A stretch of DNA of 64,000 nt from Pseudomonadota bacterium. GTDB lineage: Bacteria; Pseudomonadota; Gammaproteobacteria; Eutrophobiales; Eutrophobiaceae. The stretch covers positions 2,176,430 to 2,240,429 of the forward strand of contig JAYQJO010000001.1 of NCBI GenBank assembly GCA_038142205.1, written 5' to 3'. The position numbers and the translations under genes were made by a program. Under the pieces are notes generated by a model that saw only the letters and a program-made list of their open reading frames with translations, was not told where the DNA came from and did no database searches. This document shows, piece after piece, positions 11,712-39,785 of the stretch (position 1 is its first letter; each line of letters begins with the position of its first letter).

Positions 11712-12383
11712 GTGAATCGTGAACACCGATCGAATCTGATTTCAAAATTGTCAGACGTAATTAACGACGATCGTATAGAACGGCTGCAAGAAGTATTAAA
11801 TCAACGTACCCGTTATCTCACCGTTGTACTCGATGATATCTATCAACCACAAAACTCCAGCGCGGTTATTCGCACTTGTGAATGTATTGGCATACAGGAC
11901 TTGCACATCATAGAAGACAGAAACGCGCATAAAACAAGCCGAGATGTTGTTAAAGGCTCATCAAAATGGATAAGCCTGAATCATCATGATAAGAACCGGA
12001 TTGATTGCATAAAAAAACTAAGAGATAACGATTACAACATCGTTGCAATGACATTAAGCGAAGACAGTATTCCACTTGAGTCTTTACCCATAAATGAAAA
12101 GCTCGCACTCTGTTTCGGTTGTGAGGAAACAGGACTCGACAAAGAAATTGAAGAAAGCGCTGACTATAAAGTACAAATCCCCATACATGGATTTACTCAA
12201 AGCTATAATATTTCCGTCAGTGCCGGCATCAGTCTTTATTACTTATACAATAAAATAAAAACAACAGAACAAAGCTGGCAGCTTAGTAATGCAGAAAAGG
12301 AAGAATTGCTTATTGACTGGCTGAGTAAATCAACACCGACCGGACAGTTCTTACTTGATAAATACAAAGAAGAAATACCTTAA
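11712..12383 (+). CDS. trmH: SpoU/TrmH-family tRNA (guanosine-2'-O)-methyltransferase
   Basis: 223 aa with SPOUT motifs (LTVVLDDIYQPQNSSAVIRTCECIG...). Its stop TAA at 12381-12383 overlaps the end of attC-like site 3. Confidence 0.7.
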   Translation: MNREHRSNLISKLSDVINDDRIERLQEVLNQRTRYLTVVLDDIYQPQNSSAVIRTCECIGIQDLHIIEDRNAHKTSRDVVKGSSKWISLNHHDKNRIDCIKKLRDNDYNIVAMTLSEDSIPLESLPINEKLALCFGCEETGLDKEIEESADYKVQIPIHGFTQSYNISVSAGISLYYLYNKIKTTEQSWQLSNAEKEELLIDWLSKSTPTGQFLLDKYKEEIP

Positions 12384-12440
12384 CGTTTTAACTCAGGGGC
12401 GCGCCGACTAGGCGCGTCGCTTTGGAGTGACTTGTTATGT
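12378..12440 (-). repeat. attC-like recombination site 3 (3' end of cassette 3)
   Basis: Minus-strand reading: R''-like ACATAAC (plus 12434-12440), a central imperfect palindrome GGCGCGCC-GACTA-GGCGCG(T)C, and R'-like GTTAAGG (plus 12378-12384). The plus-strand ends TAACG / CTTGTTATGT are shared with sites 1 and 2. Confidence 0.55.
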
Positions 12441-12782
12441 TGCATTTTCATGCGTTCATTCCCAGCATACCGCAATAGAACCAACCAACAATAGCAACGA
12501 ATGTAATTCCTTTGCCCCATATATAATTTCGCTTTTTCAAACCAAACGTAATTAACCCTATTAAAAGGATAAGAACTGCGACATAAATCAATTTGAACGT
12601 AAGACTATTTACAGGCTCAGTTAATACAGATATAGGGCCGATTATTGCTCCTAGTATAAAAACCCATATTCCTAATGGGTCTGCATCAAACATTGCTAAA
12701 AGTAACATCCCAATTACAAGGGCAAGCATGAGTAATCCCATAAATGTAATGAATGATGTATTTAATTTATCCTGCAACATAA
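12384..12782 (-). mobile_element. Integron gene cassette 3 (about 399 bp)
   Basis: Bounded by the G|TT crossover points of attC sites 2 and 3. It contains one small minus-strand ORF. Confidence 0.5.
12448..12780 (-). CDS. Small 3-TM membrane protein (cassette ORF)
   Basis: 110-aa hydrophobic ORF. Its ATG lies inside the GTTATGT core at the cassette boundary. The stop TGA is 7 nt before the R'' box of attC site 3. No recognisable RBS, so the call is low-confidence. Confidence 0.35.
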   Translation of the reverse strand: MLQDKLNTSFITFMGLLMLALVIGMLLLAMFDADPLGIWVFILGAIIGPISVLTEPVNSLTFKLIYVAVLILLIGLITFGLKKRNYIWGKGITFVAIVGWFYCGMLGMNA

Positions 12783-12831
12783 CGCCTAGCGAACCGGCGG
12801 CGAAGCCGTCGGGTTACGCGCCTTGTTAGAT
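12777..12831 (-). repeat. attC-like recombination site 2 (3' end of cassette 2)
   Basis: Minus-strand R'' ATCTAAC (perfect RYYYAAC; plus 12825-12831) begins 5 nt after the TGA stop of the TIR-like ORF. Internal imperfect palindrome GCGAACCGGCGGC / GCCGTCGGGTTACGC carries 2 extra bases on one arm. R' is GTTATGT (plus 12777-12783). Confidence 0.6.
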
Positions 12832-14012
12832 GTGATTCAGAGTGCAAGTTTCTTCATTTCATTGATGGCTTCAAGTAATCTAATCGTTGCATCGCCGTCT
12901 AAAGTTTCTCCTTGGTACCTTACTTCAAAAAGCCCTTGCAGATTGGATGGTAGCTTAACCCCGTCTTTTACCAACAAAATAAATCTCTTTCCGTAAAGAC
13001 CCATAGCCGCCCCAATTTCTATTAAAACGTTTGGATTAAGCATAACTACTTCATTAGCATCTGAATCTAAGAGTTTTCGTTCATCCTCAACATGTATTAT
13101 TGCGGCGCCACAATCCCTCATGTCCGACATGACTTTTTCTGGTACTGGCTTTGACACCGATTGTTTTTCTACAGATACAACTGGCTCTAACTCACCAAAT
13201 GCAAGTAATTTTTTAATAGGTTCTACGAACTGCTTGTTTTTCCCATGGGTAATAAATACTTTTTTCTTTCGCAGCTCATTTTCCTGCGTGCTTTCGTCAA
13301 CGCGTGAGGAGGCGGCTTGGCTTGAGGAGGAAGACTGATTTACGACGCCTGAATCTTCTTGTTGATCCAGCTCATCATTTTCAAATTCTGCTTCATCTTC
13401 CTCATAGTCATCTTCTTCGGCTGCAGTGGGGATCGCCTTAAGATCAACGTACTGTTTATCTTTAATCTTTTTTAGTAGGCCCAGCCCTTCGGCTCCTTCC
13501 TGGATTAACTTGAACGTCTTTAACGTTCTATCTCGAGGAACATTCATTTCAGCCAGTACGTTAGAGGCAATGTTTTCTTTTGGAAAAGGTGACCCGTCAT
13601 ACTTCCTTAAAAACTCACCGATAATTCTTGGTTTCAACATTGCTTCTTTTTTAGCAATCAAATCATCCCCTTCAATAGTTGGAGTGACAATTCTTTTGCC
13701 TAGTTCTGAAATTTCAATTTCCGCTGAATTATAGCTCCCTGATGTCAGCCCATACGCCGCTGACGCGCCACACAGCATACGGAAGGGACCGGAAGTGGGT
13801 TGCACATCAAGAGCAGCGGCAACATTAAGGGGGCTGGAGGGGTTTGATCCATAGTTATCAGCGATAGCGTTAATAATTTTTAAAGCCTGATCAATTGACA
13901 TGCTTGGTACATCACTTTGCTTTAATGCGACTTTACGCTTCTTGGGTGTCGCTTTTCCTTTCTCAGCTATTTATTTCCCCTAAATTTAAATTTTGCGATT
14001 TTTTACATCTAA
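12783..14012 (-). mobile_element. Integron gene cassette 2 (about 1230 bp) carrying the TIR-like gene
   Basis: Starts with TTAGAT, which is complementary to the R'' box ATCTAAC of its own attC (site 2). This is the expected cassette-circle relationship. Confidence 0.55.
12837..13901 (-). CDS. TIR-like (COG4271 / CAP12-PycTIR-like) domain protein with an uncharacterised N-terminal domain
   Basis: 354 aa. The C-terminal about 130 aa (KKVFITHGKNKQFVEPIKKLL ... NPNVLIEIGAAMGLYGKRFILLVKDGVKLPSNLQGLFEV) fit the conserved pattern of 'predicted nucleotide-binding protein containing TIR-like domain'. The N-terminal about 160 aa match nothing I recognise. An acidic/Ser-rich linker (EEDDYEEDEAEFENDELDQQEDSG...SSSSSQ) lies between them. 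Confidence 0.7.
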   Translation of the reverse strand: MSIDQALKIINAIADNYGSNPSSPLNVAAALDVQPTSGPFRMLCGASAAYGLTSGSYNSAEIEISELGKRIVTPTIEGDDLIAKKEAMLKPRIIGEFLRKYDGSPFPKENIASNVLAEMNVPRDRTLKTFKLIQEGAEGLGLLKKIKDKQYVDLKAIPTAAEEDDYEEDEAEFENDELDQQEDSGVVNQSSSSSQAASSRVDESTQENELRKKKVFITHGKNKQFVEPIKKLLAFGELEPVVSVEKQSVSKPVPEKVMSDMRDCGAAIIHVEDERKLLDSDANEVVMLNPNVLIEIGAAMGLYGKRFILLVKDGVKLPSNLQGLFEVRYQGETLDGDATIRLLEAINEMKKLAL

Positions 14013-14065
14013 CGCCTAAAGCATGGGCGCAGCTTTGCTGCGTCCAATGCCTTTACTTGTTATGG
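14007..14065 (-). repeat. attC-like recombination site 1 (3' end of cassette 1)
   Basis: Minus strand: R''-like CCATAAC (plus 14059-14065), palindrome GCTGCGCCCATGCTTTAGGC / GCTGCGTCCAATGCCTTTAC with extra bases on one arm, and a perfect R' GTTAGAT (plus 14007-14013). The stop codon of the upstream ORF (14053-14055) lies inside the site. Confidence 0.6.
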
Positions 14066-14721
14066 CTTTTGACCTCTTGTATTGATACCTTAGCCATATT
14101 TGTTAGCCAATTTGTTTCGTGTAGGACCATTAAGTAATTTTTTCCATTATGGTTAAACGGCCACTGTGTACCCGGCTTAACATCTTTCAAATGATCACCG
14201 CCTTTACCTGGCAGCGTAACTTGAACATCTGCAGTGTAGTTTGGATTAAAACTGTTAACCCCAAGTGATGCAGTAGTTAAAGGATCAAAGAAAGCACCGC
14301 CTTTCTCTATTTTTGCACCATTGTAATAGGGTTTATCTAGGGGGTTAGATTCAACAGATGATGCAGCCTTTTGGCTTGCTTCTTTCATCAAGCTTGCGTT
14401 TGTCGCTTCTAGCTCTTTGACTTTGCTTTCAAGGTGCGGGATAGTTTTTGGCGTATTTACTAGCCAGCTATGTAGTTTATTATTTTCTAGGGTTAAGTGC
14501 GATATGCGACTTTCAAGGACTTCTACTTTGGCTTTGTATTGCCCTGTCTGAGCTTTTAGATTCTCAACTTCAGCTTTATGTACGTTGAGTTTATTCTCAT
14601 CGAATACGAAAGCAAATGCAGCCCAAGTGATACCTGACACTAAAAACGTATGACCCAATATTGATCTAATTGGGTGATCCTCAAACCAGTTACTCAATCT
14701 TTATTCTCCTTTAGGCCATAA
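14013..14721 (-). mobile_element. Integron gene cassette 1 (about 709 bp), first cassette next to attI
   Basis: Begins TTATGG right after the G of the attI-side GTTATGG core (plus 14716-14722). Its own attC R'' CCATAAC is exactly complementary to that start. A short 5' leader carries the SD AAGGAG. Confidence 0.55.
14053..14697 (-). CDS. Membrane-anchored coiled-coil protein of unknown function (cassette ORF)
   Basis: 214 aa. TTG start preceded by the strong SD AAAGGAGAATAAAGA. N-terminal TM helix (ILGHTFLVSGITWAAFAFVF), a heptad-rich coiled coil of about 70 aa (KAEVENLKAQTGQYKAKVEVLESRISHLTLENNKLH...), and a C-terminal Gly/Asn-rich globular domain of about 100 aa. Confidence 0.55.
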   Translation of the reverse strand: MSNWFEDHPIRSILGHTFLVSGITWAAFAFVFDENKLNVHKAEVENLKAQTGQYKAKVEVLESRISHLTLENNKLHSWLVNTPKTIPHLESKVKELEATNASLMKEASQKAASSVESNPLDKPYYNGAKIEKGGAFFDPLTTASLGVNSFNPNYTADVQVTLPGKGGDHLKDVKPGTQWPFNHNGKNYLMVLHETNWLTNMAKVSIQEVKSHNK

Positions 14722-15005
14722 CTATATTTTAACGGACACTTTGTCCGATATACTGCTATAGATTTTGAAAGTGGACTTCATGAAAACCCTCCTTGTTTCA
14801 ATAAGATATGTGATAGATTAATTATAGTAGCTCTATATCTATAGTGTCCACTTTGCTGTTTTTCATATCTAAATTGAGTATGCCCCTATATTTAAAATAT
14901 CCTCTTAAATGAGGATTTATTTATGATTTATCAATAACATATAATATTTACAGAATTATTCATATCGGACACTTTTTTACTTATAAACCCAAGGAGCGGG
15001 TATTT
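14716..15005. promoter_or_regulatory. Putative attI site and divergent promoter region (leftward Pc-like, rightward intI)
   Basis: The GTTATGG core abuts cassette 1. There are four copies of a GGAC(A)CTTT / GTGGACAC motif (14745, 14775, 14852-14865, 14966). On the minus strand, TGGACA-N18-TATAAT (about 14822-14862) points toward the cassettes. An AAGGAG SD precedes the intI ATG. Confidence 0.4.
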
Positions 15006-15404
15006 ATGCAAACTAAGCGACCTCCAAAGTTACTAGATCAGGTAAGGCAGCAAATTCATTTCCTACATTATTCTAGACAAACAGAAAAAGCATATGTGCA
15101 TTGGGTTCGTCGTTATATTTTATTTCATAATAAACGTCATCCCAAAGACATGGCTGGAGAAGAGTTAGCCCGCTTTTTAAATTATTTAGTGAATAAAGAA
15201 AACGTTTCAGCTTCTACACAAAATCAAGCATTAACTGCAATCATATTTTTGTATAAACAGATCCTAAATATTGATGTTGGAGAAATTCCTGAGTTTCAAT
15301 ACGCACGTAAACCCAAACGCCTTCTGGTTGTATTAAATCAAAATGAAGTTAAACGTGTGTTTGAATTTTTAAATGAACCACATAAAACCATGGTCACTTG
15401 TTAA
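15006..15404 (+). pseudogene. intI: Integron integrase IntI, N-terminal 132-aa fragment (3' truncated)
   Basis: LDQVRQQIHFLHYSRQTEKAYVHWVRRYILFHNKRHPKDMAGEELARFLNYLVNKENVSASTQNQALTAIIFLYKQIL...RLLVVLNQNEVKRVF is near-collinear with the IntI1 N-terminus ([37 protein letters not shown]...). It stops at aa 132 of an expected ~320. The catalytic RHRY region is absent, and djlA follows convergently. Confidence 0.8.
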
Positions 15405-15480
15405 AAGGACGGTGTTAAATCTCCTTTGAATAACCTTTAATTTTAAAAAAATCGTTATATAAATTATTGGCGACTAAACA

Positions 15481-16281
15481 TTAAAGATTTTTTGCTTTTT
15501 TTATCACTTCATAAGCCTTTCTTATTTCATGAGTTCGATCAGCTGCGATTTTCATCATTTCTTCCGGCAATCCTTTTGCGACCAATTTATCAGGATGATG
15601 CTGACTTAATAATCGACGGTATGCTTTTTTGATTTCAGCAGGACTGGCTGACTCATCAATATCCAGTACTTCATAGGCCTGTTTTAATGATGGTGCACCA
15701 TCATTGCGAGCGGCACCGGATGAGCTACTATGCATCCCGCCAATCATGGCACACAGGTGTTCGAACTCATGCTGTGAAATCTTGAGTGGCTGACAGATGT
15801 TTAATAAGACTTTGCGTTCTTCTGCATGCATGACTCCATCAGCATAAGCGGCCATGATCTGTACTTCGATAAACATGCGTAACAGATTTGGTCGAAAGCC
15901 AACTTCCTGACGAAACTGTTTTATCACATCATTTAATGGAAAAGCCGGCTTCTTACCTTCATTAAATAATTCAATAGCCGCTTTACGTTGTTCTGCATTC
16001 ATATCCATTTGTTGCATGACTTGTTTAGCGAGTGATATTTCATCTTTGGTAACCTGACCGTCAGCCATGCATATATGTCCCATAACAGAAAAGGTTGCGG
16101 TATAGAACAACGTTTGTGCGCGTTCCTGCCGCCCAAAAGCAGATTGCCTAGTCGATGATGCTGAAGAATCATTAAGACCTTTATCAAAGTTATGGCCTAA
16201 TGCTGCACCTAATAGCGCACCAATAGGTCCTCCGATCATCATGCCGAAAGTTCCGCCGAGTATTTTTCCCCACCAATTCAT
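15481..16281 (-). CDS. djlA: Co-chaperone DjlA (DnaJ-like membrane protein)
   Basis: 266 aa, MNWWGKILGG... N-terminal TM, TerB-like middle and a C-terminal J-domain (HPDKLVAKGLPEEMMKIAADRTHEIRKAYEVIK). Confidence 0.85.
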   Translation of the reverse strand: MNWWGKILGGTFGMMIGGPIGALLGAALGHNFDKGLNDSSASSTRQSAFGRQERAQTLFYTATFSVMGHICMADGQVTKDEISLAKQVMQQMDMNAEQRKAAIELFNEGKKPAFPLNDVIKQFRQEVGFRPNLLRMFIEVQIMAAYADGVMHAEERKVLLNICQPLKISQHEFEHLCAMIGGMHSSSSGAARNDGAPSLKQAYEVLDIDESASPAEIKKAYRRLLSQHHPDKLVAKGLPEEMMKIAADRTHEIRKAYEVIKKAKNL

Positions 16282-39503: not shown

Positions 39504-39785
39504 GGTTTGATCGCTCTCCTAAAAATTTATTTCTTTCTTAAAACTACACCTAAACGAGGCTTTTATACAAAAGATGTATTAATGCCGCTAAAATTTAGGA
39601 ATCTAAAGTGACGCCTGTTAACTAAGCCAAGTTGTTATGAAAAAATAACAACCATTATTATTCATTCAAATAAATGAGAATTTTTTCTCATAAAATTACC
39701 CTTTTGAAAGAATTGTTAAAACATTGTTGTATAGCTAGGATGACTTTTCATTTTAAACGGAAAAAAATTATAAGGAGATAATCTT

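Follow-up and report, generated by a model that had tools for sequence, protein, structure and literature searches.

A very probable degenerate chromosomal integron with three cassettes and an internally deleted integrase gene between trmH and djlA

What is the group of small genes and GC-rich hairpins lodged between trmH and djlA in an uncultured, AT-rich marine gammaproteobacterium, and can it still move? We analyzed a 64-kb window of its genome (the whole 64,000-nucleotide stretch taken from contig JAYQJO010000001.1), which is the extent of the genome covered here. A preliminary description, made from the letters alone, had read the locus as a small cassette array with an inactivated integrase in a housekeeping neighborhood. 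We find this overall reading supported, with only details amended: the features described are all present, far above chance, and the locus is very probably a small, degenerate, sedentary chromosomal integron with three cassettes that has lost integrase activity. Its layout is a trmH-like gene (+), three minus-strand open reading frames (ORFs), each followed by a GC-rich hairpin, a spacer, a 132-codon ORF (+), and djlA (-). GC content averages 40% over the window, reaches 49-60% in the hairpins, and falls to 29% in the AT-rich attI-side spacer (308 bp).

Recombination sites and the cassette chain

Three imperfect palindromes of 55-63 bp had been proposed as attC sites on the basis of their boxes and of unpaired extra bases on the R'' arm, and both features are confirmed by the boxes and folds. 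attC1 (59 nt, 14007-14065, minus strand) runs from R'' CCATAAC (14065 to 14059) to R' GTTAGAT (14013 to 14007), attC2 (55 nt, 12777-12831, minus strand) from R'' ATCTAAC (12831 to 12825) to R' GTTATGT (12783 to 12777), and attC3 (63 nt, 12378-12440, minus strand) from R'' ACATAAC (12440 to 12434) to R' GTTAAGG (12384 to 12378). All three have TAAC...GTTA ends and keep the conserved AAC and GTT of the RYYYAAC and GTTRRRY boxes; ATCTAAC and GTTAGAT match the full consensus, and CCATAAC, ACATAAC, GTTATGT, and GTTAAGG carry one or two deviations. On the minus (cassette-coding) strand, each site is built of R'', an unpaired spacer (AAG opposite GGC or AAC), a stem, and R', with the extra bases on the R'' arm.

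The strands of an attC site are distinguished by the arm that bears the extrahelical bases, opposite 5'-AAC on the recombined bottom strand (Nivina et al., PMC5027507). In all three sites the bulges lie on the 3' arm of the plus strand, at positions 16 and 20 in attC1, at 16 and 19 in attC2, and as a 3-nt bulge at 17-19 in attC3. The plus strand also folds better (-13.9, -11.8, and -13.3 kcal/mol for attC1, attC2, and attC3 versus -13.1, -9.9, and -8.8 kcal/mol for the minus strand), and attC1 has a folding z-score of -3.2. Bulge placement and the better fold together thus identify the plus strand as the bottom strand, as minus-strand cassettes require.

Extrahelical bases usually occupy positions 16, 20, and 23/24, with G16 and a conserved T, described as usual and not as required (PMC5027507). 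The expectation of extrahelical G and T on the bottom strands therefore held for geometry, with bulges starting at canonical position 16 on the canonical arm, but mostly not for base identity: the bottom strands carry C16 and A20 in attC1, A16 and G19 in attC2, and a TTG bulge in attC3. A T is present at 23/24 in all three, but it lies opposite a G. An attC site beside a homologous intI at another locus, L087 (site L087-A, 1682-1754), has bulges at exactly 16, 20, and 24, occupied by C16, T20, and T24; thus, a base other than G at position 16 recurs in this integron clade.

We compared the three sites with the background of the window in two ways. A scan for TAAC and GTTA separated by 40-70 nt and folding into one hairpin of at most -10 kcal/mol returned four hairpins, three of them the attC sites, all within 1.7 kb; 30 dinucleotide-preserving shuffles gave a mean of 0.1. 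The fourth hairpin, at 39646-39718, is AT-rich and has a second hairpin alongside, went undetected by the covariance model described below, and is probably a terminator. To build that model (R1), we used the bottom strands of seven attC sites, all of them from other loci, either beside homologous intI genes in L087, L088, L090, and L092 or flanking a homologous TIR cassette in L095, and the whole window was searched with filters off. Its top three matches were the three sites, at full length, with exact boundaries and on the expected plus strand (E = 0.022 for attC1, 0.0021 for attC2, and 0.0012 for attC3), and the fourth match had an E-value of 0.25. R1 is a weak model, and its ranking of the three sites is unambiguous. 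A model made directly from the three sites was abandoned for one from other loci after MAFFT misaligned them. Rfam has no attC family, and its models gave just two chance snoRNA-like matches in the window (E = 0.25-0.39).

The boxes had been said to pair from one cassette to the next as insertion predicts, and the pairing proved longer than claimed. The attI-side GTTATGGC is complementary to GCCATAAC of site 1 over 8 nt, GTTAGATGT of site 1 to ACATCTAAC of site 2 over 9 nt, and GTTATGTTGCA of site 2 to TGCAACATAAC of site 3 over 11 nt. Complementarity between the bases that follow each G/TT recombination point and the R'' region of the next site thus reaches beyond the conserved GTTA. This is the footprint expected of cassettes that were once circular, each closed at its own attC.

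The attI site was located at 14716-14800 (minus strand), with the crossover between G14722 and T14721 within GTTATGG and a conserved palindrome, GGACAAAGTGTCC, at 14746 to 14734. When the six loci with homologous intI (the window and five others) are aligned, they are conserved up to ...GGACAAAGTGTCC-N9/10-TAGTTA, and directly beyond GTTA(T/G) they can no longer be aligned. In blastn, homology of the window to L087 and to L088 starts at 14717 in both cases. Such a break is, as read from the alignment, the signature of an attI whose far side has been replaced by the last-inserted cassette. The proposed attI-side GTTATGG is thereby borne out, with the boundary placed between TAG and TTA.

A candidate cassette promoter (Pc) at 14821-14850 (minus strand) faces the array, with TGGACA, an 18-nt spacer, and TATAAT. 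It agrees with the consensus at 11 of 12 positions, the highest score in the region, and the same hexamers occur in L087, although promoter-like matches across the region show in total no excess over shuffles. Between this site and the crossover, a small attI ORF of 19 codons (14781 to 14722) is preceded by the ribosome-binding site (RBS) AAGGAGG, and its TAG stop overlaps the crossover G. Corresponding ORFs of 18-20 amino acids (aa) are seen in L087, L090, L091, and L092; in L088 a 1-nt difference shifts the frame, and the TAG ends at the crossover G of GTT in five of the six loci. The cassettes are probably transcribed from the Pc-like promoter (14850-14821) through the short leader ORF.

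The stretch from attI to the intI start contains four to five copies of the motif AAAGTG(T/G)(C/A)C / GGACAC (14734-14746, 14768-14776, 14846-14854, and 14966-14975). The palindrome GGACAAAGTGTCC, at 10-12 nt from the crossover, is one of them, a further one overlaps the -35 of the Pc-like site, and copies are conserved in L087, L091, L092, and L094. These may be putative binding sites for IntI or a regulator. No LexA box (CTGT-N8-ACAG) was seen by eye in the attI-intI interval, where no pattern search was made.

The integrase remnant

The 132-aa ORF at 15006-15404 (plus strand) corresponds to codons 1-129 of an integron integrase and then ends in TC and a stop, with its RBS (AAGGAG) kept. Its collinearity with the IntI N terminus, noted from the start, is specific in profile comparisons. 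It matches the NCBIfam integron integrase model TIGR02249 at 5e-38 (profile positions 1-121 of 315), the IntI1-type model NF011946 at 6e-33, and Pfam Phage_int_SAM_4 at 5e-29, and is collinear with residues 6-124 of VchIntIA (PDB 2a3v; E = 1.5e-23); XerC and XerD reach just ~1e-3. The ORF is thus specifically the SAM-like N-terminal domain of IntI, not of XerC/D. It is 81-82% identical to the full-length 323-aa IntI of L097, L098, and L100; such full-length relatives are found on metagenome contigs (L097-L100).

Reading the window sequence against these relatives, we spotted a second piece of the gene. Directly after the 132-aa ORF and in frame with it, 15405-15440 (plus strand) encodes KDGVKSPLNNL and a stop, about the last 12 codons of intI, corresponding to the C terminus ...KGGHGVKSPLDNL and stop of the full-length proteins; the original intI stop is at 15438-15440. 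The window thus reads ...HKTMV, TC and a stop, then KDGVKSPLNNL and a stop, where relatives read ...HKTMVGLMYG..., ~180 further codons, and ...MIYTHVLNKGGHGVKSPLDNL with its stop. The deletion removed ~180 codons (~130-309), from V129 to the THVL that follows the catalytic Tyr, and every catalytic residue is gone; further small deletions lie within the 3' remnant.

The Pfam scan gave no match to the catalytic domain PF00589, and neither its residues RKHRHY nor the IntI-specific extra segment was found. A tblastn search of the window with the C-terminal half of the near-full-length L090 IntI returned no match, and so no relocated intI piece and no second intI. Judged from the coding sequence, the comparison shows intI to be inactivated by an internal deletion that covers the whole catalytic domain, with a stop at the junction. 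The loss of the catalytic domain had been foreseen, but as a truncation; it is instead an internal deletion, and the end of the gene survives. With that domain deleted, the element itself can no longer excise, insert, or shuffle cassettes.

Cassettes, flanking genes, and relatives of the locus

Cassette 1 spans 14721 to 14013 (minus strand), between the recombination points of attI and attC1. Its ORF (214 aa, 14053-14697, minus strand; RBS AAAGGAG, TTG start) encodes an N-terminal hydrophobic segment and a predicted coiled coil; it gave at most sub-threshold coiled-coil-type matches in Pfam and NCBIfam and none in PADLOC. The ORF reads through R'' (..AGC CAT AAC AAG TAA) and stops 3 nt beyond it. 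The claim that each site begins 0-7 nt after an ORF stop therefore holds for site 2 (5 nt) and site 3 (7 nt), but the first ORF stops inside attC1. Cassette 3 spans 12782 to 12384 (minus strand), between the recombination points of attC2 and attC3, and carries a hydrophobic ORF of 110 aa (12448-12780, minus strand) whose ATG (12778-12780) lies within the R' box GTTATGT of attC2. It has no match in Pfam, PADLOC, or NCBIfam.

Cassette 2 spans 14012 to 12783 (minus strand), between the recombination points of attC1 and attC2, and its 354-aa ORF (12837-13901, minus strand) encodes a TIR-domain, defense-like protein. It matches the CAP12/Pycsar TIR family PF10137 at 3e-18 and, in PADLOC, the candidate system PDC-S35 at 1e-15 plus a TIR effector; a literature search on PDC-S35 gave no result. 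The family is well conserved, with more than 4500 homologues of ~375 aa. The codon at the usual start position of the family is ATA in the window (13970-13968) and ATG in a 90% identical homologue (P0122, locus L095); the 22 codons after the ATA are still in frame and conserved, and the next ATG is at 13901. The ATA at 13968-13970 is either an unusual start or a first step in the decay of the TIR cassette.

The L095 copy is 90% identical to cassette 2 in protein and 83% in nucleotide sequence and follows a different ORF equipped with an attC of its own (ACATAAC...GTTAGAT). DNA homology between the two runs from the recombination point (14015, between G and TTAGATG) to just past R'' and AAG (12822), and the ratio of nonsynonymous to synonymous divergence (dN/dS) is ~0.05, with dS ~1. 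At the DNA level, this occurrence as a discrete unit in a different array shows the TIR gene to be a cassette. The attC of the L095 copy (1893-1969) has R'' and AAG in common with attC2, and the interiors differ wholly (77 versus 55 nt). We considered an exchange of attC interiors between the two loci and set it aside, as the difference is explained by ordinary divergence of unconstrained positions (dS ~1), which is probably its source.

The flanks match the housekeeping genes expected. To the left, a SpoU/TrmH-like RNA methyltransferase gene (11712-12383, plus strand) matches Pfam SpoU_methylase at 3e-31 and the NCBIfam TrmH model at 4e-33, yet under the curated cutoff of the latter. Its TAA stop (12381-12383) falls within the R' box GTTAAGG of attC3, and homology to the relative L007 at the trmH end extends to 12385. 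Because trmH likewise closes with (G)TTAAG in the integron-free relatives L016 and L007, the outermost R' box seems, from this comparison, to be native trmH sequence. To the right, the djlA co-chaperone gene (15481-16281, minus strand; NCBIfam NF006948, 326 bits versus a cutoff of 162) is convergent with intI and lies 40 nt from the original intI stop. In that 40-nt spacer between the two stops, at the outer edge of the element, a GTTATAT box (15454-15460, plus strand) fits GTTRRRY, possibly by chance.

The same array was found in six contigs from different samples, with the same genes at 100% identity to the extent of each contig, four of them spanning the whole locus. They belong to a set of 12 contigs with the identical fragment, which come from independent samples and assemblers; the sequence with its intI deletion is therefore no assembly artifact.

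In the clade, the order mt276-djlA/trmH-fxsA is conserved, but what lies between djlA and trmH varies. L016 (10778-10792) and L024 (10787-10794) have an empty junction, with the stops 8-15 bp apart, and other relatives have a CBS-domain gene, a DUF3579-like gene, an RND-type transporter, or a toxin-antitoxin-like pair there. When the trmH-djlA interval was scanned for hairpins in 21 relatives, no convincing attC was found. Loci with a variable junction include L010, L013, L014, L015, and L018, and in five genomes trmH is absent and djlA adjoins fxsA. In L007, the closest relative (DjlA 92%), intI is absent; present there are 67 nt homologous to the attI region of the window, in the correct position (E = 3.5e-4), and a 299-aa ORF in cassette orientation that is unlike those of the window, with half an attC (GCGCTAGGCGTTAAAG) abutting the trmH stop. 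The comparison suggested at the outset thus finds the interval empty, occupied by unrelated genes, or reduced to a remnant, and the same three genes in none of these relatives.

Other members of this intI clade lie in unrelated contexts and are degraded at differing points. In L087, a few genes away from djlA, there is a 135-aa intI fragment (76% identical) with an attI and other cassettes, and the array is cut by an IS3 element. We considered a truncation common to the intI copies of L087 and the window: their left breakpoints are 6 nt apart, and the DNA downstream is unalignable. The cut at the far end of the L087 array is made by an IS3-family transposase pair at 13-1238. An identical 79-nt attC-like hairpin stands at 2214-2292 and 2565-2643 of L087, at a distance of 351 nt, suggesting that a small cassette was duplicated in tandem. 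Two contigs with full-length intI, L097 and L098 (56 and 62 kb), end exactly at the attI crossover (positions 1-5; ...ATAAC and CTAAC), as expected if assemblies are interrupted at points where the population differs in cassette content.

The relatives can be set out as stages, from an intact IntI whose assembly stops at attI (L097, L098) through a frameshifted intI (L090) and an internally deleted intI with a fixed array (the window, L087) to a nearly erased remnant (L007) and empty sites (L016, L024). Taken from these alignments, the apparent picture is one of repeated, independent erosion of related integrons.

History of the locus, alternatives, and known systems

These observations suggest the following course. 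The platform would have landed in the few-base spacer between convergent trmH and djlA, in the order intI (+), attI with a promoter facing the array, and minus-strand cassettes. IntI would have recombined the folded attC bottom strand of each cassette circle (here the plus strand) with attI at G/TT, and insertion of this kind leaves the first bases of each cassette complementary to its own R''. The later internal deletion of ~180 codons disabled intI, and the three cassettes, encoding a membrane/coiled-coil protein, a TIR-domain defense-like protein, and a small membrane protein, would now be fixed genes. The chain complementarity, and the fact that L007 and L087 contain different cassettes, lead us to infer that a full-length IntI was once active at the locus. 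The deletion shows the element, as its predicted protein reads, to be inactive in cis, and from this state we infer that the array is immobile at present; the recurrence of one array in six contigs from different samples fits a frozen state.

Several points weigh against this reading. The R'' and R' boxes depart from RYYYAAC and GTTRRRY at one or two positions in four of seven cases, the extrahelical bases mostly differ from the usual G16 and T, and R1 rests on 8 base pairs, with E-values only roughly calibrated. The analysis covers 64 kb of the genome, and an intact intI elsewhere could still move the cassettes. An IntI elsewhere in the genome, or on an incoming plasmid, would then mobilize the attC sites in trans, and the array would be a working cluster of attC sites lacking integron-integrases (CALIN). 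In its favor, the attC hairpins show good preservation and the R'/R'' chain is perfect; close relatives of intI at full length are present in the environment, and about half of CALINs lie in genomes with an IntI elsewhere (PMC4889954). Set against this, the six contigs (of 12) hold the same array with no cassette variants, there is no second intI within the window, and the mutated TIR start codon suggests relaxed maintenance; we consider mobilization in trans unlikely.

A rather less probable alternative is that the 129-aa IntI N-terminal domain has been kept as a stand-alone protein that binds attI and attC. If true, such a protein might shield the fixed array from foreign integrases or tune Pc. 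Its ORF and RBS are intact, several relatives keep just an intact N-terminal ORF of 107-146 codons, and pairwise dN/dS among the fragments is at most 0.15 where estimable, with synonymous sites saturated. That low dN/dS, however, may date wholly from the full-length era, the breakpoints differ among loci, and the search is subject to ascertainment bias, since it returns just those fragments that still cover the query. The small deletions in the 3' remnant are of the sort that neutral decay produces, and attC is recognized in solved IntI complexes largely through the C-terminal domain and through contacts made in trans, which argues against a binding role for the N-terminal domain. It is scarcely credible that the hairpins are ordinary terminators or repetitive extragenic palindrome-like repeats and the ORF a leftover phage or XerC/D-type recombinase. 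Each hairpin does come after an ORF, and one weak terminator-like match overlaps attC3, but no T-runs follow the hairpins, which have TAAC/GTTA ends and 8-11 nt of chain complementarity and are recognized by an attC model trained on other integron loci; the ORF fits the integron integrase model far better than XerC/D (5e-38 versus ~1e-3), and the attI boundary is common to five other loci. A degenerate integron with a frozen array thus remains our reading.

An integron of this sort belongs to a known kind, decay is a familiar fate of integrons, and the finding leaves the present understanding of integrons unchanged. Within that understanding, the TIR cassette adds one more case to the recent finding that integron cassettes often carry phage-defense-like genes. 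The Vibrio cholerae superintegron offers a likeness in its integrase, since the remnant N-terminal domain is collinear with residues 6-124 of VchIntIA (2a3v), and in its repeats. attC1 has the register of a V. cholerae repeat (PMC5027507), in which TAAC is followed by an unpaired spacer of 3 nt (in attC1, AAG opposite GGC) and the bulges fall at positions 16 and 20. The window sites differ in being 55-63 nt and heterogeneous, versus ~120-130 nt, in lacking G at position 16, and in their inactive integrase.

The leader ORF resembles those of the class 1 attI1 site, ORF-11 and ORF-17, which enhance translation of the first cassette (PMC8876359). Like these, it is a short ORF with a strong Shine-Dalgarno sequence that spans attI, ends at the crossover, and lies on the transcript toward the first cassette. 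Its TAG stop (the G being the G of GTT) comes from attI itself, like that of ORF-17 and unlike the cassette-supplied stop of ORF-11. In contrast to attI1, the peptide is of an 18-20 aa type and cassette 1 has its own RBS.

Xanthomonas integrons downstream of ilvD (PMC12444791) share with the locus a fixed position beside a housekeeping gene, inactivation of intI in some lineages that leaves stable arrays, and stages of erosion among relatives (here the window, L087, and L007). The window differs in its host, an uncultured marine gammaproteobacterium, in its site at the trmH-djlA junction, and in its much smaller array of three cassettes. Few relatives of the window keep any trace of the element, and ancestral acquisition is less clear than in Xanthomonas.

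The closest likeness in class is to CALINs (Cury et al. 2016, PMC4889954), whose definition calls for two or more attC sites spaced by less than 4 kb and for no intI that both PF00589 and IntI_Cterm detect. By these published IntegronFinder criteria, the locus is a CALIN plus an intI remnant, with three sites in 1.7 kb and both intI regions gone. It shares with CALINs a small array, cassettes mostly without assigned function, and no functional intI, and the origin proposed for them, integrase loss from a complete integron, is directly visible in the window. It differs in keeping a recognizable intI remnant, made up of the N-terminal domain plus the ~12 terminal codons. To find intI pseudogenes near CALINs, the published screen used the IntI_Cterm and PF00589 profiles (PMC4889954). 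N-terminal-only remnants are thus invisible to it, and this locus would be scored as a CALIN without a nearby pseudogene; the share of CALINs born by in-place integrase loss may therefore be underestimated. The locus is a clean example of how an orphan attC cluster can originate.

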